Assembly: GCA_963758125.1 (NCBI GenBank)
Contig: CAVWUL010000011.1
Location: 73,347-137,346, forward strand
Origin: an uncultured Actinomycetes bacterium
Lineage (GTDB): Bacteria > Actinomycetota > Thermoleophilia > Gaiellales > Gaiellaceae
DNA: 64,000 nucleotides
Direction: 5' to 3'
Shown here: piece by piece, positions 841 through 64,000 of the stretch
Layout: each line of letters starts with the position of its first letter
How positions within the stretch are numbered: position 1 is the first letter of the stretch
The notes under the pieces: generated by a model
The model's database searches: none
The model's input: only the letters and a program-made list of their open reading frames with translations
Told to the model about the DNA's origin: nothing
Made by a program: the position numbers and the translations under genes

Positions 841-977
841 GCTTCAACTAGACTCGGCCCGAGGTCAATGTCGCGAACGGGGCGCGAGTCACGGGTAGGT
901 GCCTACCTCGGGATCGGGCTTCGCTCTGCCCGGCGATCTTGCGTCCACAGCGCCCCCGACAAAAGGAGCAGTCCGAG

Positions 978-3299: not shown

Positions 3300-3307
3300 C
3301 CTGAGCC

Positions 3308-3985: not shown

Positions 3986-3995
3986 CGTTCCCGCG

Positions 3996-5696: not shown

Positions 5697-5761
5697 GGCG
5701 CGACCCCACGGCACTCAGCCGTGAAACGGCCACCTCAACCGTGTGGACGAACCGTCACACC

Positions 5762-5786
5762 GGCGTTACAACCGTAAAGAGGTCTG
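5762..5786. repeat. 25-nt direct repeat, copy 1 (GGCGTTACAACCGTAAAGAGGTCTG)
   Basis: Identical 25-mer recurs at 5883..5907 inside the SulP/FGE convergent spacer. Similarity continues about 20 nt further. Confidence 0.85.
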
Positions 5787-5882
5787 GCACCTTTACAAAG
5801 AACCGCGGCAAGCGCCGAGACCAGACGTCGCTCCATTCCGCTCGGTTTCGCACTCGCCGAGCCAGACTTCGGCTGTGGCCGA

Positions 5883-5907
5883 GGCGTTACAACCGTAAAG
5901 AGGTCTG
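5883..5907. repeat. 25-nt direct repeat, copy 2
   Basis: Exact copy of 5762..5786, 121 nt downstream. Confidence 0.85.
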
Positions 5908-5958
5908 ACCCCTTTGCAGACGGCCCGCGGAAACGGCCTGTGGAAGAAGCGGGCGGCC

Positions 5959-37488: not shown

Positions 37489-37572
37489 GTACGTGCCTCC
37501 TCGAAACGTTCGTTGTCCGCGGTCCAGTGTGACCGGGTGGTGACACCGGCTTTTAACCGAGCCGGGGTTGAT

Positions 37573-37589
37573 TGTCAAGTAGCCTGATA
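37573..37589. promoter_or_regulatory. candidate operator (TGTCAAGTAGCCTGATA)
   Basis: Located 85 nt upstream of the substrate-binding-protein start. On the minus strand it overlaps a TTGACA hexamer. Shares the 10-mer CCTGATACTC with sites at 39374 and 63555. Confidence 0.5.
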
Positions 37590-37703
37590 CTCATCCTGGC
37601 GTACTGCTAGGTCATGGATGCCGTGATTCTTCGGGTTCCTGCCTCTCGGTCCCACGACCCGCTTTCCTGCGAGGACTTCGACTACGACGAGAAAACGCAG
37701 GCG

Positions 37704-38987: not shown

Positions 38988-39368
38988 ATGGCGGTGCACA
39001 GCGAGCGCGTGCGCGTCGGCTGGATCGACACCGACGCCGGCGGCCGGATCCACTTCACGGCGGCGTTCCGCTGGGCCGAGACGGCGGAGACCGGCCTCTA
39101 TCGCAAGCTCGGCTTGCTCGGCGAGGGCCGCGGCGACTACCCGCGTCGCCATGTCGAGGCCGATTACCGGCGCGTGCTCGTGTTCGACGACGAGGTCGAG
39201 ATCACGATTCGCGTCGAGTCCGTCGGGCGAACCTCGATCCGTTTCGCGTGGGAGGTCGTGCACGACGGCGAGGTCGCGATCGGCGGCGGGCACACGATCG
39301 TGCGCGTCGATCCCGCAGGCCGCCCCACGCCGATCGACGATCGCACCCGGGCGCTGCTCGAAGCCTGA
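38988..39368 (+). CDS. acyl-CoA thioesterase (4HBT/YbgC-like hotdog fold)
   Basis: 126 aa. VGWIDTDAGGRIHF catalytic-Asp region of the 4HBT family. Confidence 0.85.
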   Translation: MAVHSERVRVGWIDTDAGGRIHFTAAFRWAETAETGLYRKLGLLGEGRGDYPRRHVEADYRRVLVFDDEVEITIRVESVGRTSIRFAWEVVHDGEVAIGGGHTIVRVDPAGRPTPIDDRTRALLEA

Positions 39369-39373
39369 CCGAG

Positions 39374-39390
39374 TATCAAGTAACCTGATA
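39374..39390. promoter_or_regulatory. candidate operator (TATCAAGTAACCTGATA); arms extend to GAGTATCA/TGATACTC
   Basis: Best palindrome of the family, with 8-bp perfect arms across 39371..39393. Lies 6 nt after the thioesterase stop and 26 nt before the P450 start region. Confidence 0.55.
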
Positions 39391-39415
39391 CTCTCCCGCG
39401 CGAGGGAGGACGGCG

Positions 39416-40582
39416 ACGGGCGACTGGGATCCGAATACTTCCTGGCAGGGGCTGATCACCGACGCGGTCCCGGGTGCTGGGCCGGCATACGCGGCGGCTC
39501 TCGCCCGCTGCCCGGTCGCACGGGTCGACGAGGTACTGGGCGGCTTCTGGGCCGTGCTCGGCCACGACGAGCTCGTCGAGGCGGCGCTTGCCACCGACAC
39601 GTTCTCGAACGTCGTCCCGTTCTTCAAGACGCGGCGGCCGCCGCTCGAGTGCGATCCGCCGGAGCACCGGATCTACCGGCGGTTGTTGAACCCGTACTTC
39701 TCCCGCGAGCGCACCGCCGCGATGGACTTGCCGCTGCGCCGGGACGCGGCCGAGATGATCCACGCGCTCGTGGCTGCCGGAACGGGCGATTTCGCCGTTG
39801 AGTTCAGCCATCCGTTTCCGACGCGCGCGCTCTGCCTGCTGCTCGACCTTCCCCGCGACGACTGGCGCCTGATCAACGACTGGTCGCTCCGGGTCGACGA
39901 GATCGGCGGCCAGAGCCCGCCCGGCAGCCCCGAGCGCATCGCGGTCGGCGAGGAGCTCCGCCCGTACATGATCGAGCTGATCGAGCTCCGTCGGCGCGAG
40001 CCCGGCGACGACGTCGTCAGCCGCCTCGTGCGGGGAGATCCCGAGCTGCCGCCGCTCGACGACGAGACGCTCGTCGGGATCGTGATGATGTTCATCTCCG
40101 CCGGTCACAACACGACGACGAGCGCGATCGGCAACGTCGTGCTGCGGCTCGCGCGCGACGAGGCGCTCCAGAGCAGGCTTCGAGCCCGACCCGAGCTCGT
40201 GCCCGGGCTCGTCGAGGAGGTCGTCCGGCTCGATGCGCCCCAGCAGGCGATGCGGCGGATCGCAACCCGTGACACCGAGCTCGGGGGCCGGCGGATCGCA
40301 GCAGGCGACTACGTCTGGCTCGTGTTCGGCTCGGCGACGCTCGACGCGGGCCCGGCGGAGCTCGATCCGGAGCGCTCCCCGAATCGCCATGTCGGGTTCG
40401 GGCGAGGGATCCACCAGTGCATCGGGGCGCCGCTCGCACGGCTCGAGGTGCGGATCGCCGTGGAGGAGCTCCTCACGCGCACCTCCTCGTTCTCGGTGTC
40501 CGGGCCGGTCGCGCGGCCGGCCTGGCCGCGGCTCGGCGTCGACCGGCTACCGCTCGCGTTCTCCCCGGCGGATGCCGGGTGA
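39416..40582 (+). CDS. cytochrome P450 (paralog E); start codon non-canonical or miscalled
   Basis: FGRGIHQCIGAPLAR heme loop. In-frame homology to the paralog N-termini (DWDPN..ARCPVARV..GGFWAV) extends upstream of the first canonical start (GTG 39554). SD GAGGGAGGA at 39402-39410, then in-frame ACG at 39416. Confidence 0.75.
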   Translation, partial: TGDWDPNTSWQGLITDAVPGAGPAYAAALARCPVARVDEVLGGFWAVLGHDELVEAALATDTFSNVVPFFKTRRPPLECDPPEHRIYRRLLNPYFSRERTAAMDLPLRRDAAEMIHALVAAGTGDFAVEFSHPFPTRALCLLLDLPRDDWRLINDWSLRVDEIGGQSPPGSPERIAVGEELRPYMIELIELRRREPGDDVVSRLVRGDPELPPLDDETLVGIVMMFISAGHNTTTSAIGNVVLRLARDEALQSRLRARPELVPGLVEEVVRLDAPQQAMRRIATRDTELGGRRIAAGDYVWLVFGSATLDAGPAELDPERSPNRHVGFGRGIHQCIGAPLARLEVRIAVEELLTRTSSFSVSGPVARPAWPRLGVDRLPLAFSPADAG

Positions 40583-41403
40583 CAAGGACCCACGGCGCGC
40601 TCGAGCTCTCCCTTGGGCTCGCGCTCTCCTACCGCCAGCTCGGCGAGCCCGGCAACCCGGAGCTGCTGCTCCTGCACGGCGGCGGGCTCAGTGCCGAGGA
40701 CTGGTGCGAGATCGCGCCGGCCTTCGCCGATGCCGGCTATCGCGTCACCGTCCCCGATCTCCGCGGTTGCGGCGAGAGCGACTGGGATCCCGAGGTGCGC
40801 TACGGCGTCGAGGACACGCTCTCCGACCTCGAGGAGCTGATCGCACACCTGACCCTCGGGCGGTTCGTCCTCGTGGGCCACTCACTCGGCGCGGTCACGG
40901 CGTGCGTCTATGCGGCACGGCACCCGGAGCGTGTGATCGCCTGCGTCATGGAGGACGGCGGCCCGGCTGACCACACGCGCCCTTCGTCGCTCGAGAGCCC
41001 GACGATCGTGTTCGAGTCCGACGAGCACGCGCTTGCGGCGCTCGGCAAGTCGCTGCCTCGCGGAGTGCCCGGCTGGGTGCTCGACTCCCGCTTTCGCCGG
41101 CTCGACGACGGCCGGCTGACCTGGCGCAGCGACATCGCCGGCCGCGTCCGCTGGTCGGAAGCGGGGGGTGAGCCGCTGATCATGGGGCTCTGGCCCTACG
41201 TCGAGGCGATCCAGTCGCCCACTCTCGTCGTTCGCGGCCGCGAATCTCCACTCTTCAAACGCGAGTACGCAGAGCGCATGGTCGAGGCGAACGCGATGAT
41301 CCGGCTCGTGGAGATTGCCGACGCGGGCCACCTCGTCCACTGCGAGCAGCCGGAAGCGTTCACGGCCGAAGTGCTCGAGTTCCTCGCCGGGCAGCAGGCA
41401 TGA
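40579..41403 (+). CDS. alpha/beta-fold hydrolase
   Basis: GTG in a GTGA overlap with the P450 stop. LLLLHGGG, nucleophile elbow GHSLGA and C-terminal AGHLVH. Confidence 0.85.
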   Translation: MTRTHGALELSLGLALSYRQLGEPGNPELLLLHGGGLSAEDWCEIAPAFADAGYRVTVPDLRGCGESDWDPEVRYGVEDTLSDLEELIAHLTLGRFVLVGHSLGAVTACVYAARHPERVIACVMEDGGPADHTRPSSLESPTIVFESDEHALAALGKSLPRGVPGWVLDSRFRRLDDGRLTWRSDIAGRVRWSEAGGEPLIMGLWPYVEAIQSPTLVVRGRESPLFKREYAERMVEANAMIRLVEIADAGHLVHCEQPEAFTAEVLEFLAGQQA

Positions 41404-42497
41404 CGGCGCTCGACGCGCTCGTCGCAGCGTACGAGAGCCCAGCGACGGCGATTCGCCGGTGGCAGGAGGCGGGCGGGCTCGTCGCCGGATGCGTCGGCGC
41501 CGACGTCCCGCACGAGCTCGTCGCTGCGGCGGGTCTGTTGCCGGTGCGGCTGCAAGGGTCGGGTGCACTCTCCCCGCTCGCCGAGGAGATTCTCGGCCCA
41601 CGCGTCGATCCGTCGGTGCGGCTGATCCTCGCCGACCTGCTCGAGCGCCGGACGCCGCTCGACTTCCTGCTCGTCTCACACGAATCCGACTCGACGGTCC
41701 GGCTCTTCACCTCGCTCCGCGTGCTCGCGCGCGACGAGCCTGCCCCGCCCCTCCCCGGGTTCGCGATCGTCGATCTGCTGCATCTCCCGACGGAGACGAC
41801 CGCTTCCTACGACGTTGGCCGCCTGCGCGAGCTCGCCCGCGTTCTCGAAGCGTGGTCGGGACAGCCGCTCGACGACCCGGGCCTGAGGGCTGCGATCGCG
41901 AGTGCCAACTCGACGAGGCGGTTGCTGGCGGAGCTGGCCGAGCTACGAAGGTCGGATCCATCGCGGCTCTCCGGTACCCACGCACTCGCCGTGCTCGGCG
42001 CCGGAACCGTGCTGCCGGCCGAGGCGTACAACGCTCTTCTCGCGGCTCTTCTCGAAGCTCCCGGAGAGCCTCTACCCGCGCCCCGGCGCCGGATCTACCT
42101 CGCCGGAAGCGCGCACGACTCGACGGCCGTCTACCACGCGCTCGAGGCCGACGGGTCGGTCGTCGTCGGCGAGGATCACGGCTCGGGCGAAGCCCTCGGT
42201 GACGGGCTCGTCGAGGAGACGGGCGATCCCTTGGCGGCGCTTGCCGCCCGGTACCAGGCCGGCTCCGCGCTCGCCCTTCGCAACGACCCGGATGCGCGCG
42301 CCGCGTGGACTGCGGCCGAGGCCGAGGCAGCCGGGGCCGAGGTCGTCTGCTCGTGGATCCGCACCGGCGACGACCCGCTCGCCTGGGGCGTTCCCGCGCT
42401 GAAGGCGGCGCTCGCGGCGAAGGGGATCCCGCTCGTCGTGCTCGACCATCGCGGCCTCCAAGCGCCGGCACCGGCCGAGCTGGCGGCGCTCCGGTGA
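41400..42497 (+). CDS. 2-hydroxyacyl-CoA dehydratase / benzoyl-CoA reductase BcrC-BadD-HgdB family protein (atypical)
   Basis: ATGA overlap with the hydrolase. N-terminal GCVGADVPHELVAAAGLLPVRL matches the family entry motif. Only 2 Cys in 365 aa. Confidence 0.7.
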   Translation: MTALDALVAAYESPATAIRRWQEAGGLVAGCVGADVPHELVAAAGLLPVRLQGSGALSPLAEEILGPRVDPSVRLILADLLERRTPLDFLLVSHESDSTVRLFTSLRVLARDEPAPPLPGFAIVDLLHLPTETTASYDVGRLRELARVLEAWSGQPLDDPGLRAAIASANSTRRLLAELAELRRSDPSRLSGTHALAVLGAGTVLPAEAYNALLAALLEAPGEPLPAPRRRIYLAGSAHDSTAVYHALEADGSVVVGEDHGSGEALGDGLVEETGDPLAALAARYQAGSALALRNDPDARAAWTAAEAEAAGAEVVCSWIRTGDDPLAWGVPALKAALAAKGIPLVVLDHRGLQAPAPAELAALR

Positions 42498-43765
42498 GCT
42501 TCCAGGGCGCACGCGGCGCCAGACGGCTCGCCTCGTCTGCGGCCGCCTCCCGCTACCAGCGCGAATGGTTCGCAGGCCTCGCACCGCGCGTCGCCGCCGG
42601 CGAGCCGCTCGTGCTCGCCGATGCGGACGTGCCGCACGAACTCCTGCGTGCGATGGAGATTCCGTACGTCGTGAACCAGTGGTGGGCGTCGATCTGCTCC
42701 GCGAAACAGCGCGGCCCCCGCTATCTCGGGCTGCTGCGGGAACGCGGCTACCCCGACTGGGTCGAGCAGTACTCGGCGATCGCGCTCGGCTCGACGCTCG
42801 AGGACGACCCGGCAGAGGCGCCGTGGGGCGGCCTTCCGGAGATCTCGATGTTCCTGACCCAGATCTGGACGGACTCCCATCTCGGGATCGCGCAGGCCTG
42901 GCGCCGCGAGCGCGGGGTGCCGTTCTTCGCGCTCGAGAAGGCGGTGGTTCCGGAGTTGCCCGACCTGTGGTGGGAGCGGATCCCTTGGAGCTGGGAAGAG
43001 GTCGTCGGCCCCGCCCGGCTCGACCTGATGACGGCCGAGCTCGAGCGCCTCGTCGGGTTCCTCGAGGCCGAGACCGGGCGTGCATTCGAGCGGGCGCGGC
43101 TCGAGGACGTGCTCGTGCTCGCAAACGAGCAGCAGGAGTGGAGCCGCCGCACACGCGACCTGCTCGCCGCCACCTCGCCGGCGCCGCTCGACATCGTCGA
43201 CAGCATCCCCGCCGTGATGCTCCCGCAGTGGCACCGGGGCACGGAATGGGCCCGCGACGCGGCGCGCGCCTTCCACGAAGAGGTCGAGGAGCTCGTCGCC
43301 GACGGTGCCGCCGTCTGCGAGGACGAGCAACTGCGCCTGATGTGGATCGGGCGCGGCCTCTGGTTCAACCTCGGCTTCTACCAGCACTTCCAGGAGGCCT
43401 ACGGCGCCGTCTTCGTCTGGTCGATGTACCTCGCGATCGCCGCGGACGGTTACGTCCGCTACGGCGGCGAGCCGCTGCGGGCGCTCGCGGCGCGCTTCGC
43501 CGCGTTCACCGACCTGATCGGGATGCCCGGCTGGGCCGACGCCTGGTACGTGAAGGAGGCGCAGTCGCACGGCGTGGACGGCGTGGTTCATCTCGTGACG
43601 GCGGAGTCTCGGAGCAGCTACTTCGTCACGCGCGCGCTCGAGCGGGCCGGGATCCCGGTGCTCGAGATCGACGCCAACAACGCCGACGCCCGCGAATGGG
43701 ACGAGGCGGCCTTCGTGGCCTCTCTCTCCGGGTTCATCGAGACACGGGTCGTGAAGCGGAGATGA
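42494..43765 (+). CDS. 2-hydroxyacyl-CoA dehydratase family protein (HgdA-like partner, atypical)
   Basis: GTGA overlap with the previous gene. ADADVPHELLRAMEIPYV has the family motif with Asp where Cys is expected. Only 2 Cys in 423 aa. Confidence 0.7.
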   Translation: MSFQGARGARRLASSAAASRYQREWFAGLAPRVAAGEPLVLADADVPHELLRAMEIPYVVNQWWASICSAKQRGPRYLGLLRERGYPDWVEQYSAIALGSTLEDDPAEAPWGGLPEISMFLTQIWTDSHLGIAQAWRRERGVPFFALEKAVVPELPDLWWERIPWSWEEVVGPARLDLMTAELERLVGFLEAETGRAFERARLEDVLVLANEQQEWSRRTRDLLAATSPAPLDIVDSIPAVMLPQWHRGTEWARDAARAFHEEVEELVADGAAVCEDEQLRLMWIGRGLWFNLGFYQHFQEAYGAVFVWSMYLAIAADGYVRYGGEPLRALAARFAAFTDLIGMPGWADAWYVKEAQSHGVDGVVHLVTAESRSSYFVTRALERAGIPVLEIDANNADAREWDEAAFVASLSGFIETRVVKRR

Positions 43766-44875
43766 GATTGCTCCTGCTCGGCGATCTGATCCTCGACGAG
43801 CCCGATCCGGACAGCTTCTTCGCACCCAGCCGTGAGCTCCTGGGTGCGGCGGATCTCGTCGTCGGGCACGTGGAGGTGCCGCATACGAGCCGCGGCGTCC
43901 CGAGCTCCGTGGACATCCCGGCGCCGCCGGCCGATCCCGCACACCTCTCGGCGCTCGCACGCGCAGGCGTCGACGTCGCGACGCTCGCCGGCAACCACAT
44001 CTTCGACTCGGGGCCCGCGGGGATCGAGGACACGATCGCGGAGCCTACGCGGGCTCGGGATCGCCACGGCCGGGGCCGGGATGAACATCGACGAGGCGCG
44101 GGCGCCCGCAATCGTGGCCGCAGACGGCCTGCGGATCGGCGTGCTGAGCTACAACTGCGTCGGCCCGCGCGAGTCGCGTGCCACCTCCCGCAAGGCCGGC
44201 TGCGCACCGCTCGACGTACTCACTCACTACGAGCTCGACTACGCGGGCCCGGGCGGCCCGCCGCGGATCTACACCTTCGTCACGCCCGAGAGCCTCGAGG
44301 GGCTGCGCACCGACGTGCTCGCGCTCCGCGAGGCCGCGGACGTCGTCGTCGTCGCGTTCCACAAGGGCATCGGCCACCTCCCGGTCGTCGTGCCGGCCTA
44401 CGAGCGCGAGCTGGCGCGTACCGCGATCGACTGCGGCGCCGACGTCGTCGTCGGCCACCATGCCCACATCCTCCGCGGGATCGAGCTCTACCGTGGCAAG
44501 CCCGTGTTCCACGGCCTCGGCAACTTCGTCGCGGTCACCCACGCACTGACCCCTAGCGGTGCGAGCGCAGCCGAGCTCGACGCGTGGTCGAAGCGCCGCC
44601 GCGAGCTCTTCGGCTTCGCCCCCGACCCGGAGATGCCCTTCTATCCCTTCCATCCCGAGAGCCGGAACACGATGGTTGCCGACTGCCGCGTCGGGCCGGA
44701 AGGCGTCATCGAGGCGGGCTTCGTCCCGTGCTGGATCGACGACCACGGCCGCCCGGTTCCGGTGGGACCGGGGTCGGGAGGCGAAGCGGTCGCGGCCTAT
44801 GTCGAGAGAATCACCGCCGCAGCGGGATTCCCGACGAGCTTCACCTGGGACGGCGAGCGCGTGCTCGTCGGCTAG
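43762..44875 (+). pseudogene. CapA-family (metallophosphatase-fold) protein, one apparent frameshift near 44040-44050
   Basis: ATGA overlap with the upstream gene. N part is in frame 1 (MRLLLLGDLILDEPDP..IEDTIAE). The rest is in frame 2 (LRGLGIATAGAGMN..). Collinear with the intact paralog at 63575. Confidence 0.75.
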
Positions 44876-45078: not shown

Positions 45079-46263
45079 CTACCGGCGCGTAGCCACGCAC
45101 GCAAGCGGCAGCGTCTCGGGGCCGTGCACGGGCCAGCCGAGCATCACGGGCTCGCCGGCCCGCTCGAACGAGGCTGTGCGGGCGAGTAGCTCCTCGAGCG
45201 CGACCGTCAACTCGGTGCGGGCGACCGCGATCCCGGCGCACTTGTGCGGGCCGTGACCGAAGGCGAGATGCGGGTTCGGCGAGCGGTCGAGGACGAAGCG
45301 CTCCGGGTCCGCGAATACCTCGGGGTCGCGATTGGCAGAGGGCAGGACGAGCGCCGCCATCTCGCCCGCGCGGATCGTGCGGCCGCGAACCTCGACGTCG
45401 TGCGTCGCGGTGCGCGCGAAGCCCTGGTTCGGCGCGTAGAGGCGCAACAGCTCCTCGAGCGCCTGAGGAATGAGGCCCGGATCGCTTCTCAACTGCTGCT
45501 GGAGCCCGGGATCACGCGCCAGGTGGTCGACGGCACTCGCGAGGAGGGCAGTCGGGGCGACGTGGGCGGCGATCAGCAACTGCCGGAGGCTTCCCGCGAC
45601 GAACTCGTCCTCGAGCGGCTCGCCGTCGATCTCCACCGCGAGCAGTGCGCTGACGATGTCCTCGGCCGGGTCGAGCGGGCTCACGCGCCGCTCCGCCACG
45701 AGCTTCCGGCATTCGGCGTAGAGATGCTGATTCTCACGCTCGGCGGTCTCGGTGTCGAAGTGCGCCTGGGCGTGCTCGAACCGCTCGCCACTCGCATTCA
45801 GCTCGCGGGCGTACTCGCGTGGGAGATGGAGAATGTCCGTGAAGACGAGCCCTGCATACGGTGAGCTGAACTCCATCACGAACTCCCCACCGCCCGCCGC
45901 AACGAACGGCTCGAGCAACTCGCCGGCGAGCTCCCGCATCCGTGGCTCCATCGCCGGCACGCGCTCGGCGGCGAACACGGCGTTGAGGGGCCGCCGGTAG
46001 CGCGGATGCTCAGGCGGGTCGAAATGCAGCGGGGCGCGGCGGCCCGAGACGGGGTTCTTCGGCACGACGATCCCCTGCGCGCTCGAGAAGTCCGCAGGCC
46101 TGGAGCTCGCGGCGACGATGTCGTCGTAGCGGGTGAGCGCCCAGAAGTCCCAGCGTGCGCCGCGCGCGACCGGACAGTCCGCCCGCAGCCGCGCCCACGT
46201 CGCGTGCGGGTCGGCGACGAACTCCTCGGCGAGCGGATCGAAGTCGGCGGGCGAGGCGGCCAT
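45079..46263 (-). CDS. cytochrome P450 (paralog A)
   Basis: ATG at 46263 (MAASPADFDPL). FGHGPHKCAG heme loop. 394 aa. This is the C-terminal half of the artefactual 799-aa track ORF. Confidence 0.9.
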   Translation of the reverse strand: MAASPADFDPLAEEFVADPHATWARLRADCPVARGARWDFWALTRYDDIVAASSRPADFSSAQGIVVPKNPVSGRRAPLHFDPPEHPRYRRPLNAVFAAERVPAMEPRMRELAGELLEPFVAAGGGEFVMEFSSPYAGLVFTDILHLPREYARELNASGERFEHAQAHFDTETAERENQHLYAECRKLVAERRVSPLDPAEDIVSALLAVEIDGEPLEDEFVAGSLRQLLIAAHVAPTALLASAVDHLARDPGLQQQLRSDPGLIPQALEELLRLYAPNQGFARTATHDVEVRGRTIRAGEMAALVLPSANRDPEVFADPERFVLDRSPNPHLAFGHGPHKCAGIAVARTELTVALEELLARTASFERAGEPVMLGWPVHGPETLPLACVATRR

Positions 46264-47442
46264 CAGCCGAACCGGATCGGCAGCAGCTCGTACCCCGACT
46301 TGAACCCGACCGACGCGACGGGCTCTCCGGCGAGCGAGAACGATTCCGTGCGGTCGAGCAGCTCGTCGAGCACGACCCGGAGCTCGAGCCGGGCGAGCGG
46401 TGCCCCGATGCAGATGTGCGGGCCGATCCCGAAGGTCAGGTGCCGGTTCGGCTTGCGCGCGAGATCGCAGACGCTCGCGTCCGGGAACGCAGCTTCGTCG
46501 AGGTTTCCGGCGGCGAAGCCCAGGCCGACGAGGTCTCCGGCCTGGATCACGACACCTTCGACCTCGACGTCTTGCGTTGCCGTGCGCCCGAGCAGGTGCA
46601 GCGGAGGGCCGACGCGAAGGAGCTCCTCGACCGCGGTCGGGATCAGCGATCGGTCCTTGCGAAGCCGGGCCTGCTCGTCGGGATGCGTGGCGAGGCGGTG
46701 GATCGCAACCGTGAGCGAGCGGGTCGTCGTCGAGTGGCCCGCCGCAATCATCTGCCAGCCGACGGCGGCGATCGTCTCGTCGTCCAGCAGCTCGCCGTCC
46801 TGCCGCGCTACGAGGAGACCCGAGAACATGTCCTCGGCCGGATCGAGCGGCGTGCGGCGTCGCTCCGCCACGAGCTCGGCCGCCTTCTCGATGAACAGGG
46901 CAGAGACGGCGGCCTGCTCCTGCGGGACCGGAGCCGCCAACCGCCTGAACGGCCGCGCTCAGCCCCTTCATCGCGACCCATTCCGAGTCGGGCACGTTCA
47001 GGAACGCGCAGAGCAGGCGCGCCGGGAGTGGATGGGCGAGCGCGGCGTGCAGATCGCCTTCGCCGGCCGCCAGGACCGGAGCGAGATGCTCGGCCACGAG
47101 CGCCCGGACGCGAGGCTCGAGCGCCTTGATCCGGCTCGGCGTGAAGTAGGGCGCGAGCAGTCTCCGGAAGTACGTGTGCCGCTCTCCGTTCGTCGAGAGC
47201 GGGATGAACTCCGGCGTCCCGGGCCGCTCGACGAAGGGCTGCCGGCTCTCGAATGTGGCGGTGTCCCGCGCCGCGGCCTCGATCTCCGCGTAGCGCGAGA
47301 GCGTCCAGAAGCCCCCGTAGGCAGAGGTGTGGGCGACCGGGCAACCCTCGCGCAGATCGGCGTAGAGCGGGAAGAGCGCCTCGCCGTCCGATGCCTCGAG
47401 CGGCGCCCAGTCCTCGCGCGTCTCGGCCTCAGCCGGGGTCAC
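46263..47442 (-). pseudogene. cytochrome P450 (paralog B), one apparent frameshift near 46935-46960
   Basis: N part is in the frame of ORF 45079..47478. C part is ORF 46263..46940 (FGIGPHICIG). GTG at 47442 forms a GTGA overlap with the paralog C stop; ATG at 47478 is the alternative start. Confidence 0.75.
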
Positions 47443-48632
47443 GGGGCGAGCCTCGTGGGAACGCTCAACGTCCCCCACTCGGGCCAGCCGGTCATCGTCA
47501 CCTCGCCGTCGAGCTCGATAGCCGAGGTTCGTGCGAGCAGCTCCTCGAGCGTGACCTCGAGCATCAGCGTCGCAAGCGGCGCGCCGGCGCAGCGATGCGG
47601 CCCGGCGCCGAAGGCGAGATGGCGCCCGATGTTCGGGCGGTCGAGCACGAACTCGTGCGGGTCGGAGAAGACCGACTCGTCGCGGTTGGCCGACGCGTAG
47701 ACGAGGGCGACCGGTTCGTCCTTGCGGATCGTGCGACCGCCGATCTCGACGTCTCGCGTGGGGGTGCGCGCGAACCCGCGATACGGCGTGAGCAGGCGGA
47801 GGTACTCCTGGACCGCAGCAGGCACGAGCGACGGATCGTTCCGTAGCCGGGCCTGCAGCTCGGGGTGCTCCGCGAGGTGCACGACCATGCTCCCGATGAA
47901 CACGCAGGGCGCGACCATGCCGACGACGATGAACTGCCGGATCGTCCCTAGGAGCATCTCGGGCGGGAACGGCTCGCCGTCGACCCGCGCCGCGAGCAGG
48001 CCCGAGACCGGGTCGTCGGCCGGATCGAGCGGCTCCGCCTCGCGCATCGCGATGATCGCCCGGGCGATGTCGTAGAGCGCGACGCTCGTGCGCTTGACGC
48101 CCTCCATGTCGAACTTCTGCACTGCATCCACGAACTCGCGCGTCGCCTCGCGGATCGCCATCCCGAGCTCGGGTGTCAGGTTGAAGAACTCGGCGAAGAC
48201 GTAGCCGGGAAGCCGGTGGGTGAACTCGGCGCAGATGTCCGCGCCGCCCTTGTCGACGAGCGGCTGCAGCAGATCGGCGACGATTCGCCGTAGCTCAGGC
48301 TCGATCGCGGTCATCTTCTCCACGGTGAAGTACGGGTTGAGCGCGCGCCGGTAGGGCGTGTGCTCGGGCGGGTCGAGGTGGAGCGGCGGGCGGCGGCCGG
48401 TGAAGGCGAGTCTCGGCACGACGTTCTGGACGCTCGTCGTGAAGAGCGCCGGGTCGCCGGCCGCGGCGAGCACGTCGTCGTAGCGAAGGAGCGCCCAGAA
48501 GCCGTTCCAGGCATCGCTGCGTGCGACCGGGCATGCCCGGCGGAGCACGCTGAACTCCTCGTGGAAACTCGCGAACGACTCGGCCTCGAGCGGATCGAAG
48601 TCCTGCACGGGCCGCTCCGCGTCGACCGCCAT
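47439..48632 (-). CDS. cytochrome P450 (paralog C)
   Basis: ATG at 48632 after a GGAGGAGG SD. FGAGPHRCAG heme loop. 397 aa. Confidence 0.9.
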   Translation of the reverse strand: MAVDAERPVQDFDPLEAESFASFHEEFSVLRRACPVARSDAWNGFWALLRYDDVLAAAGDPALFTTSVQNVVPRLAFTGRRPPLHLDPPEHTPYRRALNPYFTVEKMTAIEPELRRIVADLLQPLVDKGGADICAEFTHRLPGYVFAEFFNLTPELGMAIREATREFVDAVQKFDMEGVKRTSVALYDIARAIIAMREAEPLDPADDPVSGLLAARVDGEPFPPEMLLGTIRQFIVVGMVAPCVFIGSMVVHLAEHPELQARLRNDPSLVPAAVQEYLRLLTPYRGFARTPTRDVEIGGRTIRKDEPVALVYASANRDESVFSDPHEFVLDRPNIGRHLAFGAGPHRCAGAPLATLMLEVTLEELLARTSAIELDGEVTMTGWPEWGTLSVPTRLAP

Positions 48633-48820
48633 CAGTCCTCCTCCAGCGCGATCGCGAGGTTCGGGCAGGCATCGACCGCGTCGCGGACCGCGGCCTCGTG
48701 CTCGGGCGCCGGGACGACGTCGTAGACGAGCTCGCCGTCCACGATCCGGAACACATCCGGTGCGGCGTAGGTGCACTCGGCGTTCAGCGAGCACACCTCG
48801 GCGTCGACGGCGATCTTCAC
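48632..48820 (-). CDS. small ferredoxin (3Fe-4S/4Fe-4S type, P450 redox partner type)
   Basis: 62 aa, VKIAVDAEVCSLNAECTYAAPDVF...DACPNLAI (CxxxxxC...CP pattern). GTGA overlap with the paralog D stop. Its stop overlaps the paralog C ATG. Confidence 0.8.
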   Translation of the reverse strand: MKIAVDAEVCSLNAECTYAAPDVFRIVDGELVYDVVPAPEHEAAVRDAVDACPNLAIALEED

Positions 48821-50001
48821 GGCGCCACCAGGCGAAGCGGCAGGTACGAGACGCCCTGGCGGATGAACGTGGTGCGGATCGGCTCGCCCGCGAGCTCGAA
48901 CCACGAGGTTCGGTCGAGGAGCTCCTCGACCGCGATCCGGATCTCGAGGCGAGCGAGGTCGATCCCGATGCAGCGATGGATGCCCCGGCCGAAGGTGACG
49001 TGCTCGTTCGGGCTTCGGTCGATCACGCAGCGATCGGGCTCCGAGAAGTGCCCGGGATCCCGGTTCGCGGCCGCCCACATCAGCATCAGCTGCTCGCCTG
49101 CCTCGACCCGGCGGCCGTGCAGCTCGAGCTCGTCGTTGGCCCAGCGCGGCATGCCCTGCACCGGCGTCTCGAGGCGGAGGAACTCCTCGATCGCGAGCGG
49201 GACGAGCTCGGGCTCGGCACGAAGGCGCTTCTGGATCTCGGGGTCGGCCGCGATCCGCAGAAGCGAGTTGCCGATCCCCCCGGTCGTCGAGTTGTGCCCG
49301 GCCGTGAGCAGCAGACGGATCAGCTCGATGCAGCTCGCCTCGGTGACCTCGTTCGCGCCGTCGGTGGCGCCGAAGATGCCCGAGATGAGATCGGTCTCGG
49401 GATCCCGCGGCCGCTCGATGCGCTCGCGGACGAGGCCTCGCGAGTACTCGTAGAGCGCGTCGTTGCAGCGCGCCCGCGCGGCCGGGTCGTTGCCGCGGCC
49501 CTCCTCGGCCGCGAAGAGCTCCTCGGAGATCGCCTTCAGCCCTGCCCACTCCTCGTCGGGCAGCCCGAGCCAGAGGCAGAGCGAGCGCGCCGGCAGCGGG
49601 TAGCTGAGCGACTCGGCCAGATCGGCCTCTCCGGCCGCAAGGGCCGGCTCGAGCATCTCGGCGACGAAGCCGCGCACAGCCGGCTCGAGCTGCGCGACCC
49701 GCTCCCGCCCGAAGTACGGCTGGAGCACGCGGCGATAGAAGGTGTGCTCGGGCCGGTCGACCTCGAGCGGCGGGCGCCCGGTGCCGAACTGGGGGCCGCC
49801 CGAGTTGTTGAACCGCTCCGACGCGCGGGCGATCGAAACGACGTCGTCGTAGCGGGAGACCGCCCAGAAACCGCCCATCCGCTCGGTCCAGGCGACCGGG
49901 CAGCGCTCGCGCAGGCCGGCCCACGACGCCGGGGGATCGGCGGCCGTGCCGGGCTCATAGGGGTCCCACTCGACGGGGCGGTTGACGGCGGTGCCGGTCA
50001 T
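48817..50001 (-). CDS. cytochrome P450 (paralog D)
   Basis: 394 aa. FGRGIHRCIG heme loop. ATGA overlap with the dioxygenase stop. Confidence 0.9.
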   Translation of the reverse strand: MTGTAVNRPVEWDPYEPGTAADPPASWAGLRERCPVAWTERMGGFWAVSRYDDVVSIARASERFNNSGGPQFGTGRPPLEVDRPEHTFYRRVLQPYFGRERVAQLEPAVRGFVAEMLEPALAAGEADLAESLSYPLPARSLCLWLGLPDEEWAGLKAISEELFAAEEGRGNDPAARARCNDALYEYSRGLVRERIERPRDPETDLISGIFGATDGANEVTEASCIELIRLLLTAGHNSTTGGIGNSLLRIAADPEIQKRLRAEPELVPLAIEEFLRLETPVQGMPRWANDELELHGRRVEAGEQLMLMWAAANRDPGHFSEPDRCVIDRSPNEHVTFGRGIHRCIGIDLARLEIRIAVEELLDRTSWFELAGEPIRTTFIRQGVSYLPLRLVAP

Positions 50002-51081
50002 CGCGGCTCGAAGGTCTCGCCGATCGACTGCTGCTCGGGCTCCTCGATCCGCTTGAAGAGCCGGAAGGCCTCGAGCACCGGCCGATCGCTGATCACGAAC
50101 AGGTCGGCCTCCTCGTTCGCCTCATGGTCGACGGCGGCCCAGGAAGGAACGACGAACGTGTCGCCCGGCCCCCACTCGTATGCCGTCTCGTTGATCACGG
50201 TGCGCCCCGAGCCACTGAAGACGACCCAGACCGAGCTGCCGGTGCTCCGCGTCGTGGGCGTGCGCGCGCCCGGGTAAAGCCGCGTCATCTCGCTCGAGAA
50301 GGTGCGGATCGCCGGGCCGCCCGTGGCCGGGTTCAGGTACTCGACCGTCACCTGGTGGCCGCCCTCCGAGGCGTGCAGTGCCTCTAGTTGGCGCACGGTG
50401 TTCGCACGGCTGTAGCGGAGGAGCGGCGAGTTGAGCGGGTCGGGATCGCCGCCCGCGGGCGCGACGCCCGGCCCCGAGTAGAGCTGCTCGGAGAGGTTGT
50501 GGCCGCGCACCTCCTGCGTCAGGTCGGGATGGTTCTCGAAGAAGATCGACTCGAGCGAGACCATCAACGGCAGATCGAGACCGTCGAACCACACCATCGG
50601 CTCGTCGCCGTAGTTGTTGTGGTCGTGCCACTTCCAGTTCGGGGTGAGGATCAGGTCACCGGCCTCCATCTCGCAGGCGTCGCCGTCGACCGTCGTGTAG
50701 ACACTCGAGCCCGCCAGCACGAAGCGGATCGCCGAGGGCGTATGACGGTGTGCGGGCGCGCTCTCACCGGGCCCCAGGAACTGGATCGCGCCCCAGAGCG
50801 TGGTGCTCGTGAACGGGAGGCCGTTGAGCCCGGGATTCGCCAGGGCGAGCACGCGCCGGTCGCCGCCGCGCTCGATCGTGATGATCTCCCCCGCGCGTTT
50901 GGCCAGAGGCAGCACCGTGTCCCACTTCCAGAGCCAGGGCAGGGTGCTCGGAAGCGGGCACGTCCGGCATGATCTTGCGCTGGAGGCTCCACAGCGCCTG
51001 CAGATCGTGGGCGGCGAGCGCGCCGCAGAACTCGTCGTAGCCGACCTCGACGGTGTGTGCGCTACTGACGTCGATGCTCAT
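49998..51081 (-). pseudogene. gentisate 1,2-dioxygenase-like bicupin, one apparent frameshift near 50935-50950
   Basis: N-terminal 50 aa lie in ORF 50764..51081 (..LQALWSLQRKIMPDVPASEHP). The continuation PWLWKWDTVLPLAKRAG.. is in the frame of ORF 49998..50915. Two cupin modules (HRHTPSAIRF; second cupin near the C-terminus). Confidence 0.8.
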
Positions 51082-51968
51082 CCTGACCTCCTGTCGCTTG
51101 TGCTCGGCGGCTCGCCATCCTCGAGCCGGTCGAAATGATCCTGCGCCGCCTGGCTCCAGGCGGCATGACGGCGGTGGAAGAACTCGTAGGCACCGCGCCG
51201 CGGCCAGTCGCGCGGCAGCAGCTCGTCCGGCAGATCCGGATCGAGAAACGCGATCCGGCGCCAGGCGTGGACGAGCTCGGTCTGCGCACGGAACGTGCCG
51301 GCACCGTCGCGCGGTCGTGCGCCGGCGAACCGTTCGAGGAAGCCCTCGTACTCCTCACGGAGCCCGTCCAGATCCCAGGCGTCGACGAGATCCTCCGCGC
51401 GGCCGAGTGTTCCGAGGCCGGCCATGAACGAGACGGCCTCGGCGCCTGCATCGGCGGCTCGAAGCGCGGCGGCGACGAGCGGCTCGCGGTCGGCGTGCGG
51501 CGCGATCCACACGCCGCCTCCGAGCGAGCCCATGCCGGCCCGCGCGAGCCGGGTGCGGACGTGGTGCCTGACACGCCTGCGCTCCTCGGGGATGCGGAGG
51601 ACGACCACGAGCCAGCGCTCGTCCCACGTCGTTTCGCGGCCGAAGCCGAAGATCCGCTCGCGGCCCTCCTCGAGCACGTGGGCCGTCTCGCGCGTGACGC
51701 TCATCCGGGTGCGGCGCCCCGTGCGCTCACCCGTGAGCCAGCCGTCGCGCGTGCTGCGGGCAACCGCCTGTCGCGCCGTCTGCTCGGTGTGCCCGAGCGT
51801 GACGAGCGCCGCGATCAGCCGCTCCTGCCACACGATGCCCTCGCGGGGCATCACGTACTCGCCGAGGACGGTCATCAGCACCGAGCGGGCGGCGGGCGGG
51901 CCGACGCTGCGGCGGCGCATCGCGCTCGAGAGCGCGCTGCCGGGCGGAGGGCCGGCGAGGGCGGTCAT
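51078..51968 (-). CDS. PaaX-family transcriptional regulator
   Basis: ATG at 51968 in an ATGA overlap with the thiolase-like stop. 296 aa. WDERWLVVVLRIPEERRRVRHHVRTRLARAGMGSLGGGVWIAP is the typical PaaX core. Confidence 0.85.
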   Translation of the reverse strand: MTALAGPPPGSALSSAMRRRSVGPPAARSVLMTVLGEYVMPREGIVWQERLIAALVTLGHTEQTARQAVARSTRDGWLTGERTGRRTRMSVTRETAHVLEEGRERIFGFGRETTWDERWLVVVLRIPEERRRVRHHVRTRLARAGMGSLGGGVWIAPHADREPLVAAALRAADAGAEAVSFMAGLGTLGRAEDLVDAWDLDGLREEYEGFLERFAGARPRDGAGTFRAQTELVHAWRRIAFLDPDLPDELLPRDWPRRGAYEFFHRRHAAWSQAAQDHFDRLEDGEPPSTSDRRSG

Positions 51969-62055: not shown

Positions 62056-62153
62056 GCGCCCCCACCCAGGGTGGGGAGCCATCCCCGCCACCCTCGAGAT
62101 CAAATTCTACGAGCTCGAATACCCTGTGTCTGTACCAGCTTCGTAACGGTTTC
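62056..62153. repeat. ~95-nt repeat element, copy R (inverted relative to copy L)
   Basis: Contains CCCCCACCCAGGGTGGGG, CCACCCTCGAGATCAAATTCTAC and GTGTCTGTACC. Overlaps the PrpD-like stop codon. Confidence 0.8.
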
Positions 62154-63543
62154 AGCCGTCCTGGAGCCTCTCGGCCAGAGGAGCGAGAACGGAGGCGACG
62201 TCGGATTCAGCGTCGAGGGAGAGGATCCGAACGGCGAGCTCGCGGCGGGCCGCACCGTCGAGGGGCAACGCAGCGTGTCCCATGCAGTCGAGGTGCTTGG
62301 CGAGAAGTTGCCTGTCCGAAATCGGGTTGCCGGGAGCTCCGAGTGCTACCGGAACCTCGCAGACGAGCACGCGTCCGTCGGTGGTCGTGACCTCGACGCT
62401 GCCGCCGGCGACCCCGAGTGCGAGATCGACCTGGAAGCGAATCCGCTCTGCGAGCCGGTGTACTCCGTCGGCCCCGAGCCGCTCCGGCACGAACGAGCCG
62501 AGGTTGAGCTCGCCGGCTTCGATCGCGAGCGCCACCGTGACGTACACGCTGAACTTCGCCTCGACCACCGTGCCCGGCCGGAGCTTGAGCTCGCGCGGCT
62601 CGGCGACGAGAGCGCGCGCCTGCGGTGACCCGATTAGCAGCACCCCCGCGATCTGATCCGGCCGGAAGCCGTGCTCGGCCCTGAGCGCCAGGGCGCCCTC
62701 GACGAACGGATGCGTCGCGCGGCAACTCGGCCACGGCTTGAAGCCGACCCGCTCGCCGGCATATGCAGACCCGAGATCGTCCAGCGCTCCCACGAGGTCG
62801 GCGTCGCCGCCCGCATACGCGTGGAGCAGCCCGCCGGCTCCCTCGAACGGCGCGTCGTATCCGCGGAGGCCGTCCCGTGCGAGGAGCGCCGAGACGAGGG
62901 CCGCGTGGGCGGGAAACGCGTCGCGAACGCCGCGCATCGGCGTGCCGCTGCTGCCGAAGATCGGCCCGTGGCTGCCGAGCTGCCCGAGCACGAGCGAGAA
63001 CGCATCGAGCGTCCGCCGCTCGTCGAGACGAAGCAGGTTCGCCGCCGCCGCAGTCGCACCGAACCCGGCAACGAGCGACGGGGGATACCACCCACGTTCG
63101 ACGAGTGCAGGCCCGAGCGCTCGCGAGAGCCGGCAGGTGAGATCGCAGCCCACCGCCATCGCAGCGAGAAAGTCTCGGCCGCTCACCCCGCCCTCCGACT
63201 CGGCGAGCGCGACCAGCACCGGAACGATCTGCGCGTTCGGATGGCAGAGCGAGTCGTCGTCTGCGTCTTCGAAGTCGAGCGCGTGGGCAAGAGCGCCGTT
63301 CACGAACGCAGCCCAGGCCGGCGACGTTCGCTCCCCGAACCCGAAAATGGTGGAGACCGGCGCCGACCCCTCGCTTCGCGCGAGCGACGCGAACGAGCGG
63401 CACTCGGGAGCGAGACCGCTCGCCGCCACCGACACGCCGATCGCATCGAGGAGCGACCGCCCGGCGGCGGCGAGGGCGGCTGCGGGGATCGCGTCAGCCC
63501 GAGTCTCCGCGACGTGGCGCGCGATCCGGGCCGAGACTTCCAC
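62152..63543 (-). CDS. MmgE/PrpD-family protein (2-methylcitrate dehydratase-like)
   Basis: 463 aa. GTG start. N-terminal ARHVAETRADAIPAAALAAAGRSLLDAIGV and overall length are typical of the MmgE/PrpD family. Confidence 0.85.
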   Translation of the reverse strand: MEVSARIARHVAETRADAIPAAALAAAGRSLLDAIGVSVAASGLAPECRSFASLARSEGSAPVSTIFGFGERTSPAWAAFVNGALAHALDFEDADDDSLCHPNAQIVPVLVALAESEGGVSGRDFLAAMAVGCDLTCRLSRALGPALVERGWYPPSLVAGFGATAAAANLLRLDERRTLDAFSLVLGQLGSHGPIFGSSGTPMRGVRDAFPAHAALVSALLARDGLRGYDAPFEGAGGLLHAYAGGDADLVGALDDLGSAYAGERVGFKPWPSCRATHPFVEGALALRAEHGFRPDQIAGVLLIGSPQARALVAEPRELKLRPGTVVEAKFSVYVTVALAIEAGELNLGSFVPERLGADGVHRLAERIRFQVDLALGVAGGSVEVTTTDGRVLVCEVPVALGAPGNPISDRQLLAKHLDCMGHAALPLDGAARRELAVRILSLDAESDVASVLAPLAERLQDG

Positions 63544-63554
63544 CGGCCGGCGAT

Positions 63555-63571
63555 TATAAGCTCACCTGATA
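63555..63571. promoter_or_regulatory. candidate operator (TATAAGCTCACCTGATA) in the PrpD-like / CapA-like divergent spacer
   Basis: The whole spacer is 31 nt. The right half site CCTGATACTC is identical to sites at 37573 and 39374. On the minus strand TATAAT lies 9 nt before the PrpD-like GTG. Confidence 0.45.
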
Positions 63572-63574
63572 CTC

Positions 63575-64000
63575 ATGGCAGAACTCGTCTTCGTCGGCGA
63601 TCTCATCCTCGACGCGCCGGATCCGGTCTCCTACTTCGCCCGTTGCCGCGAGGCGATCACCGGGGATGTCGCCGTCGCCCAGGTCGAATGGCCGCACACG
63701 GATCGCGGCCAGGTGTGCGCGCTCGAGGTCCCGGCGCCGGGAGCGCCGCCCGAGAACCTCGCTGCCCTCCGGGAGCTCGGGTTCGAGATCGCAACCGTGG
63801 CCTCCAACCACACCTTCGACCAGGGGCCGTTCGGCGTGCTGGACACGATCGACGGGCTCCGGAAACTCGGCATCGCCACGACGGGTGCAGGCATGACGCT
63901 CACCGAGGCCCGGGCCCCCGCGATCGTCGAGGCCGCCGGCATCCGGGTCGGCGTGCTCGCCTACAATGCGGTCGGGCCGCGCGAATCCTGGGCGACCGGC
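63575..64000 (+). CDS. CapA-family (metallophosphatase-fold) protein, second paralog (3' end lies outside the window)
   Basis: ATG at 63575. MAELVFVGDLILDAPDP..VASNHTFDQGP..LGIATTGAGMT is collinear with the gene at 43762. Open to the window end. Confidence 0.8.
   Translation, partial: MAELVFVGDLILDAPDPVSYFARCREAITGDVAVAQVEWPHTDRGQVCALEVPAPGAPPENLAALRELGFEIATVASNHTFDQGPFGVLDTIDGLRKLGIATTGAGMTLTEARAPAIVEAAGIRVGVLAYNAVGPRESWATG

Follow-up and report, generated by a model that had tools for sequence, protein, structure and literature searches.

A dehydratase-family protein pair without iron-sulfur cluster ligands may form the core of a conserved catabolic module in aerobic Actinomycetota

We analysed a 64,000-nucleotide stretch of contig CAVWUL010000011.1 (assembly GCA_963758125.1) from an uncultured actinomycete of the Gaiellaceae, hereafter the window. 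It encodes, side by side, two proteins of the HGD-D family (PF06050), which we call HGD1 and HGD2. The superfamily (HgdAB, HadBC, BcrBC and DCCP) is the standard example of ATP-driven radical catalysis by low-potential iron-sulfur enzymes and is confined to anaerobes. To our knowledge, this enzyme family is known only as oxygen-sensitive iron-sulfur radical enzymes. Judged from its sequence, the window pair belongs to the fold family but fails the defining functional features of the dehydratases and reductases. We establish here the fold and subunit types of the pair, the loss of its catalytic Glu and cluster ligands, the absence of an activator in the vicinity, the co-conservation of its genes, and strong purifying selection. 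The loss of cluster Cys and activator, taken with this conservation and with the linkage to a CoA-transferase gene, leads us to propose that the scaffold supports a second kind of chemistry. With modest confidence, we read the pair as a cluster-free, activator-independent, acyl-CoA-transforming heterodimer at the core of a PaaX-regulated catabolic module in aerobic Actinomycetota.

The AlphaFold models of HGD1 (pLDDT 90.3, pTM 0.89) and HGD2 (pLDDT 85.5, pTM 0.87) were compared with solved structures. HGD2 resembles the substrate-binding chains BzdO (TM 0.80) and HadB (TM 0.80-0.84), while HGD1 resembles the accessory chains BzdN (TM 0.89) and HadC (TM 0.87). The Foldseek probability was 1.00 for both proteins against BzdNO and HadBC, and the best matches of the pair in sequence as well as structure were BzdNO/MbdNO (8s02, 9g87). 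Sequence and fold homology place both proteins in the HGD-D superfamily. The models assign HGD1 as the predicted beta (N-type) subunit and HGD2 as the predicted alpha (O-type) subunit, encoded by neighbouring genes. The 4-nt overlap of the two genes is retained in Streptomyces and Nonomuraea. At least 18 representatives of a 50%-clustered library (P0167-P0201) are fusions of 686-845 aa, in which the N-terminal half resembles HGD1 and the C-terminal half HGD2.

Next to the fold, we looked at the residues that hold the metal clusters. In BzdO, a [4Fe-4S]-OH2 cluster is bound by Cys95, Cys128 and Cys380, with Glu65 and His131 as acid/base residues; BzdN holds an [8Fe-9S] cluster on Cys36, Cys73, Cys100, Cys263, Cys293 and Cys327 (PMC11971306). 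HadB and HadC have three Cys ligands each, and the unique iron of HadB binds the thioester carbonyl (PMC7317905). The solved sequences, transcribed from HMMER output, were aligned with 205 relatives of HGD2 and 80 relatives of HGD1. Both window proteins contain exactly two Cys each and retain the VPHEL entry motif, as an initial annotation of the window had stated and as the translations confirm. Aligned with BzdNO, MbdNO and HadBC, the pair does not show the full Cys set; there is no cluster-ligand Cys at any alpha or beta position.

At the alpha positions, the equivalent of BzdO Cys95 is Glu91 in HGD2 (E in 166, D in 30 and C in 6 of the 205 relatives), and that of Cys128 is Thr126 (G 115, T 69, S 9, C 6). 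Asp127, which follows Thr126, is nearly invariant among the relatives. The Cys380 equivalent falls within a 4-residue deletion in HGD2 and is deleted in the cluster-free sequences displayed. The alpha ligand Cys are thus lost in about 97% of the close HGD2 relatives, and only 6/205 keep Cys. The beta positions tell a similar story. Cys36 of BzdN is replaced by Gly in HGD1 (G in 80/80 relatives), Cys73 by Asp (D in 77/80), Cys100 by Ser (C in 62 and S in 16 of 80), Cys263 by Gly (D, S or G), Cys293 by Ala (P or A) and Cys327 by Asp (D in 78/80). Other lineages retain one of the beta ligand Cys at most. The initial annotation had taken the Asp of ADADVPHE in the second protein for the site of a cluster ligand. 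This site matches the BzdN-type and not the alpha-type position. The example was wrong, yet its conclusion that the ligand is not Cys stands, because the real alpha ligand positions are also non-Cys.

The catalytic Glu of the 'PE' motif of MbdO and HadB is replaced as well. It corresponds to Gln62 in HGD2, and Gln is found in 205/205 relatives; the 'PE' Glu was equated with BzdO Glu65 by spacing, not by direct alignment. Judged on these alignments, the pair has neither the alpha Cys, nor the beta Cys, nor the active-site Glu of a functional 2-hydroxyacyl-CoA dehydratase or class I benzoyl-CoA reductase. Four HGD1 orthologs have zero Cys, and among the wider relatives a 767-aa fused protein (P0173) and several single-domain proteins are also without any Cys. 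Cluster-retaining and cluster-free proteins are interleaved in this wider family.

These replacements could be read in another way. The pair might still be a redox or radical enzyme that holds an Fe-S cluster on Asp, Glu, His, Ser and a few Cys, or a mononuclear iron, with its reductant (an activator or a ferredoxin) encoded elsewhere. Asp, Glu, His and Ser occasionally act as ligands of Fe-S clusters or of a mononuclear metal, and the replacing residues here are conserved potential ligands: E or D occupies the first alpha position in 196/205 relatives, Asp127 is nearly invariant, and the beta subunit shows D, C/S and D together with an invariant EDH motif. HGD2 also has one invariant Cys, C275, some wider relatives show a C/D/C pattern, and genes for a ferredoxin and a flavin reductase lie close by. 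However, C275, the only invariant Cys of HGD2, aligns with no ligand position, and the third alpha ligand is deleted rather than substituted. Cys is missing altogether from some HGD1 orthologs and from whole fused proteins. The pair occurs in aerobic hosts, the nearby ferredoxin lies among P450 genes, its usual partners, and no activator was found across 87 loci. Taking both sides together, we consider a persisting redox enzyme improbable.

The activator was sought by several routes. Neither the window nor any of 87 related loci (±10 kb) gave a tblastn match at E<=1e-5 to YjiL, an HgdC-type ATPase of E. coli. The best phmmer hit of the activator query in the six frames of the window had an E value of only 3.2. 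BcrAD_BadFG (PF01869) was absent from Pfam scans of the main open reading frames (ORFs) of the window, and from the precomputed Pfam annotation within ±10 kb of loci L001-L007. As all three kinds of search were negative, the earlier statement that the 64 kb encode no activating ATPase is upheld. For comparison, BzdNO requires the electron-activating BzdPQ module (PMC11971306).

The pair is widespread. We find more than 1,600 matches to HGD2 in the protein collection, and relatives in 438 genomes in a scan of one genome per species. HGD2 identity is 80-96% in Gaiellaceae-like metagenome-assembled genomes and about 60% in Streptomyces, Nonomuraea, Amycolatopsis, Actinomadura and Prauserella. Isolates of, among others, Streptomyces, Amycolatopsis and Nonomuraea carry the pair intact in their genomes. 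Among 19 HGD2 sequences, 128 columns are invariant. Between the window and Streptomyces, identity is about 60% for HGD2, about 60% for the CapA-like protein encoded next to it, about 58% for the CoA-transferase and 40-46% for HGD1. The lower conservation of HGD1 than of HGD2 fits a structural beta and a catalytic alpha subunit. The pair is under strong purifying selection. These proteins are named in the database only as '2-hydroxyacyl-CoA dehydratase family protein', and full-text literature searches returned no description of cluster-free HGD-D proteins or of this gene module.

Next, we checked which genes accompany the pair. Eighty of the related loci were annotated by tblastn, and genes were counted in the 66 cluster-free loci with full 10-kb flanks. 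HGD1 was present in 66/66, a family III CoA-transferase (CoAT3) in 65/66, a PaaX-type regulator within 10 kb in 61/66, a CapA-like protein in 60/66 and SBP_bac_3 in 49/66 loci. The P450 was found in 22/66 and the alpha/beta hydrolase in 11/66, and the activator in 0/66. The Streptomyces-type order is PaaX / SBP_bac_3 ABC transporter / CapA - CoA-transferase - HGD1 - HGD2. From these counts, the conserved unit is the HGD pair with CoA-transferase, CapA and PaaX, and the P450 and hydrolase were added only in the lineage to which the window belongs. The initial annotation had instead taken the gene quintet of the window as the unit to look for in other genomes and had pointed to its pairing with an O2-dependent P450. 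The counts do not support the quintet, and the P450 pairing is a lineage-specific accident.

The same linkage could point to a non-catalytic role. The pair might be a pseudoenzyme, a scaffold that binds CoA esters or a regulatory partner, in a complex with the family III CoA-transferase; it would channel or sequester the thioester and catalyse nothing. Such a complex is formed by FldA with FldBC in phenyllactate dehydratase. In the present loci, the cofactor ligands and the catalytic Glu are gone, the CoA-transferase is linked in nearly all of them, and the beta subunit evolves fast, all of which would suit such a role. We nevertheless regard a pseudoenzyme as unlikely. The alpha subunit is as conserved as the neighbouring bona fide enzymes (about 60% across orders) and has many invariant polar and aromatic residues. 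The replacements at its ligand sites are conserved as acidic residues and are not random. Moreover, locus L021, which has full flanks, carries the HGD pair without the CoA-transferase.

The direction of the change is indicated by a small group of relatives. All three alpha Cys are kept in six sequences, all from Chloroflexota/Anaerolineae metagenomes, in the contexts LCRYC, xCD and SCTQ. In a neighbour-joining tree rooted with MbdO and HadB, this Cys-retaining clade is sister to all 83 cluster-free sequences, a topology that indicates cluster loss as the direction of change. The HGD1 partners of the clade are already without every ligand Cys. Their locus order is PrpD-like, acyl-CoA ligase, glycyl-radical activase, eliminase-type glycyl-radical enzyme, CapA, HGD1 and HGD2, and in locus L057 it is peptide ABC transporter, CapA, hydrolase, HGD2 and CoA-transferase. 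Because of these features of the clade, the CapA linkage and Gln62 are older than the loss of the alpha cluster. Beside the Cys-retaining loci, the search for an activator met only peptide-transporter, CapA, hydrolase and CoA-transferase genes, on contigs that stop about 0.4-1.4 kb past HGD2. The initial annotation had suggested that the pair is a repurposed, possibly cluster-free use of the fold. The non-Cys ligand positions, the Glu-to-Gln change, the Cys-free relatives, the lack of an activator in 87 loci and the sister clade agree with this view.

On two Anaerolineae contigs (L005, 3886-11323; L075, 3835-11260), the Cys-retaining pair and CapA lie directly behind the glycyl-radical genes. 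This glycyl-radical-linked locus may be the anaerobic counterpart of the pathway.

A broader reading extends to the whole CapA-linked HGD-D branch, which would be an activator-independent, non-radical lineage. The beta cluster would have been lost first, and the alpha [4Fe-4S] cluster would then have served only as a Lewis acid, to be replaced in aerobes by carboxylates with or without a divalent metal. Such enzymes would carry out an oxygen-tolerant elimination or isomerisation of a 2-substituted acyl-CoA, with the enantiomer supplied by an MslH-type epimerase. The beta ligands are indeed already gone in the anaerobic Chloroflexota members. We put this reading forward tentatively, and think it rather doubtful.

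For the CapA-like protein, a possible function is suggested by a known enzyme. Its only solved relative is MslH (8gq9, E 7e-21), a lasso-peptide C-terminal Trp epimerase (PMC10406935) that works as a Ca(II)-dependent acid/base epimerase of the C-terminal residue (PMC8179263; PMC10406935). The two share the calcineurin-like fold of the CapA/PgsA family and 7/8 key residues, with equivalents of Asp11, Glu44, Asn87, His88, Asp91, His259 and His295 kept (reference PMC10406935). The corresponding motifs are GD, HVEVP, GNHIFD, FHKG and GHHAH; MslH His261 is aligned with Gly. There are also differences. Identity is low, the NCBIfam scores of 67-112 bits lie far under the MslH cut-off of 700, there is no lasso-peptide context, and the substrate is presumably a small acid and not a peptide. 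In the window, PF09587 matches both halves of the CapA-like gene. The Pfam matches and the retained residues place the predicted product in the CapA/PGA_cap (MslH-like) family, although its frame is not intact here.

The nearest solved relatives of the CoA-transferase are SUGCT, YfdE, and the formyl-CoA and benzylsuccinate CoA-transferases. It is closest to the dicarboxylate-type family III enzymes (SUGCT, YfdE, succinate-glutarate, succinyl-CoA:mesaconate), with scores far below the curated cut-offs. NCBIfam scans of the CoA-transferase, Amidohydro_2, short-chain dehydrogenase (SDR), PrpD, solute-binding proteins and glycyl-radical enzyme, including their Streptomyces and Anaerolineae versions, reached no equivalog-level cut-off, and therefore no pathway name can be transferred.

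We also examined the layout of the operon itself. On the plus strand at about 39.4-44.9 kb there are five reading frames with four 4-nt junctions: GTGA (40579), ATGA (41400), GTGA (42494) and ATGA (43762). The junctions read as the initial annotation had given them, and Pfam (p450, Abhydrolase_1, HGD-D, HGD-D and PGA_cap) agrees with its five family assignments. Its five-gene operon holds for the genes and junctions, with two corrections: the P450 start is a non-canonical ACG, and the CapA-like gene is frameshifted. It had further taken the overlaps to imply stoichiometric co-production. In the relative L001, 11/13 tight same-strand junctions called are 4-nt overlaps; such overlaps are the genome default, ordinary translational coupling with no special signal, which makes that inference a weak one.

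The codon at 39416, where the P450 frame begins, is ACG, and the earliest canonical in-frame start is GTG at 39554. We compared the syntenic start region (window 39393-39440) in relatives including L001, L008-L011 and L019. A GGAGGAC Shine-Dalgarno sequence 5-6 nt before the ACG is kept in the alignment with seven relatives. The GDWDPN codons after the ACG are conserved in seven genomes, with synonymous third-position changes, while the canonical in-frame starts farther downstream are not conserved. The conserved GGAGGAC and the conserved GDWDPN coding therefore indicate that translation of the P450 very probably begins at or near ACG 39416. The translation contains the heme-thiolate motif FGRGIHQCIG (FxxGxHxCxG) and ExxR as EEVVRL. 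The I-helix of this P450 (39416-40582) reads AGHNTT; its Asn occupies the site of the acidic residue that forms, in most P450s, the acid-alcohol pair of O2 activation.

The CapA-like gene of the window is spread over two frames, with PGA_cap profile positions 9-101 in one and 91-253 in the other. The cause is an extra C at 44044, a base that is missing in four relatives. In L001, whose HGD2 is 96% identical, all five operon genes are intact. The window has at least four further frameshifts. Compared with L001, they interrupt the cupin, thiolase and FAH-family genes, and an additional P450 at about 46263-47478, which has no counterpart in L001, shifts frame midway. The frameshift sites (44044, ~50956-50993, ~53005, ~53340 and 46263-47478) occur at a density of about one in 4 kb. 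Similar split hits are seen in several of the nearest relatives, which are 'MFD' metagenome-assembled genomes from long reads. An exact-sequence look-up of the window HGD2 found no record. As the extra C is absent in relatives and further frameshifts are scattered over the window, we consider these frameshifts, that of the CapA-like gene included, to be probably indel errors of the long-read assembly and not real pseudogenes. A pseudogenised operon was rejected, since the frameshifts are scattered across unrelated genes of the assembly and are absent in relatives.

The same defects might suggest that the whole locus is an artefact or is decaying, made up of pseudogenes of a low-quality metagenome-assembled genome: the CapA-like, cupin, thiolase and FAH-family genes and one P450 are frameshifted, and the operon P450 lacks a canonical start. 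But neither HGD-D ORF is interrupted or truncated, the genes are intact in the Streptomyces, Amycolatopsis and Nonomuraea isolates, and the CapA frameshift comes down to one base missing in four relatives. Conservation across 438 species genomes effectively refutes this explanation, and we give it a negligible chance.

Table 1. Coordinates of the pair, its operon and associated features in the window.
Feature	Coordinates	Strand	Remarks
Operator-like site 1 (GATTGTCAAGTAGCCTGATACTC)	37570..37592	.	between CoA-transferase and ABC-transporter binding-protein genes
Family III (CaiB/BaiF) CoA-transferase, ~398 aa	37704..38900	-	divergent from operon; 93% identical to PF02515 gene of L001
4HBT-fold acyl-CoA thioesterase (YbgC/FadM-like)	38988..39368	+	4HBT_2 in relative; NCBIfam YbgC-type match below cut-off
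Operator-like palindrome GAGTATCA-N7-TGATACTC	39371..39393	.	just before P450 ribosome-binding site
Cytochrome P450	39416..40582	+	probable start ACG at 39416; PF00067
Alpha/beta hydrolase, 274 aa	40579..41403	+	GHSLG nucleophile elbow; Abhydrolase_1; lineage-specific, 11/66 loci
HGD1, predicted HGD-D beta/N-type subunit, 365 aa	41400..42497	+	PF06050, E 2e-40
HGD2, predicted HGD-D alpha/O-type (substrate-binding) subunit, 423 aa	42494..43765	+	PF06050, E 4e-35
CapA/PGA_cap (MslH-like) calcineurin-fold protein	43762..44875	+	split by +1 frameshift here; intact (370 aa) in relatives
PaaX-family transcriptional regulator	51084..51968	-	gene comparison with L001
MmgE/PrpD-family protein	62152..63543	-	divergent from second CapA paralog
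Operator-like site 3 (GATTATAAGCTCACCTGATACTC)	63552..63574	.	abuts ATG at 63575 (second CapA)
Second CapA/PGA_cap paralog	63575..64000	+	runs past window end; translation MAELVFVGDLILD..., GNH-type motif ASNHTFDQG

The window contains three operator-like sites. The motif is a 23-bp quasi-palindrome with the core TCAAGnAnCCTGATACTC; it occurs three times, against 0.06 occurrences expected by chance, each time at a transcription unit: that of the ABC transporter, that of the P450-HGD operon and that of the second CapA paralog. The initial annotation had noted this paralog behind the same operator motif, and the site at 63552 does directly precede it. The motif is found at syntenic positions, perfect or nearly so, in 14 Gaiellales-like loci (L001, L008-L020), and is absent from the Streptomyces-type loci compared. 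The PaaX-like regulator is a candidate to bind these sites, and so is MarR. By inspection only, the motif was rejected as a promoter, as its TTGTCA and GATACT hexamers are only about 8 bp apart, too close for a sigma-70-type geometry.

The pairing of a PrpD gene, divergent or adjacent, with a second CapA paralog recurs in Nonomuraea (L026, L028, L081) and in the Anaerolineae loci (L005, L075). This recurrence suggests a second conserved two-gene unit.

The surroundings of the operon (about 31-64 kb) look like an aromatic, gentisate-type degradation neighbourhood. They include Amidohydro_2, an ABC transporter, four more P450s with a ferredoxin, a gentisate-1,2-dioxygenase-like cupin, PaaX, thiolase, a FAH-family protein, flavin reductase, NDP-forming acyl-CoA synthetase, FAD monooxygenase, acyl-CoA ligase, MarR, SDR, MaoC hydratase, PrpD and the second CapA. 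The four tandem P450 genes and the small ferredoxin lie at 45082-50001 (minus strand), directly downstream of the operon; L001 has three such P450 genes and L008/L009 have four. The G+C content of the window is about 70%. Far from the operon, at 939-6882, there is an unrelated sulfatase cluster with a sulfatase, a Sap/SfLAP-family membrane protein, a SulP sulfate permease with a STAS domain and a formylglycine-generating enzyme.

We compared the window pair with the known systems. With HadBC, FldBC and HgdAB it shares the Pfam family, the alpha/beta heterodimer architecture and adjacent, coupled subunit genes. The had and fld operons also have a genetically linked family III CoA-transferase (HadA, FldA; family III or I in these systems). 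In contrast, the three Cys per subunit and the 'PE' Glu of those enzymes (Gln here) are missing in the window pair, their activators HadI, FldI and HgdC have no counterpart found near the pair, and the hosts here are aerobic. The window pair is linked to a CapA/MslH-like protein and PaaX, and theirs to a D-2-hydroxyacid dehydrogenase. In the comparison with BzdNO/MbdNO, HGD1 is the counterpart of the N subunit and HGD2 that of the O subunit, but the [4Fe-4S]-OH2 and [8Fe-9S] clusters, Glu65/His131 and the BzdPQ module of BzdNO all have no equivalent here. DCCP (E. coli YjiM, with the reductase YjiL or DCCP-R) has the superfamily fold (TM 0.67-0.83). It is, however, a homodimer with a seven-Cys motif and a dedicated ATPase, unlike the present pair of two distinct subunits with no Cys motif and no ATPase found.

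Based on these comparisons, we propose the following course for a cluster-free heterodimer. The ABC transporter would take up a carboxylic acid, and the MslH-like CapA protein would act on the free acid, most likely by metal-assisted acid/base epimerisation at C-alpha. The family III CoA-transferase would then turn the acid into its CoA thioester. HGD2 would bind this thioester and carry out a non-radical, oxygen-tolerant transformation, most likely an elimination (dehydration) or an isomerisation. The carboxylates of Glu91 and Asp127 would sit in the former cluster pocket of HGD2, and the faster-evolving HGD1 would be mainly structural. In the lineage of the window, the P450, the alpha/beta hydrolase and the thioesterase would have been added, with the module placed inside a gentisate-type aromatic cluster. 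A CapA-like enzyme that prepares the free acid would play a part like that of the (R)-specific supply line in clostridial pathways. The step order, the epimerase role, the reaction type and the substrate class are our inference.

Several points weigh against this proposal. In the absence of a ketyl radical, an ordinary 2-hydroxyacyl-CoA is chemically hard to dehydrate (PMC7317905), so either the reaction or the substrate must be other than the canonical one. Most Streptomyces-type HGD1 proteins retain one Cys, at the BzdN-Cys100 position, and the Asp, Glu, His and Ser residues at the ligand sites may leave room for an Fe-S cluster or a mononuclear metal in the pair. The search for an activator relied on one query sequence (E. 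coli YjiL) and on Pfam, over the window and the flanks, and a BadF/BcrA-type ATPase may be encoded elsewhere in the genome. Some of the fusions may be gene-calling artefacts of indel-rich assemblies. The putative epimerase role of CapA is drawn by analogy from one characterised homologue. Finally, the kin of the CoA-transferase are dicarboxylate enzymes, yet the gene neighbourhood looks aromatic.

In summary, we describe a large and strongly conserved branch of the HGD-D superfamily in aerobic soil actinomycetes, found in at least 438 species genomes, which has apparently shed both clusters, the catalytic Glu and the activator and has kept its tie to a CoA-transferase. Through the Cys-retaining clade, the branch offers an anaerobic-to-aerobic evolutionary series in which the role of the clusters becomes directly testable. 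The module has culturable and genetically tractable carriers, such as Streptomyces olivaceus and species of Amycolatopsis and Nonomuraea. Solving the pathway would also give the CapA/MslH family its first small-molecule function. If the CapA-linked branch as a whole is indeed a non-radical lineage, it would provide an aerobic, ATP-free route to chemistry that has been thought to need ketyl radicals.

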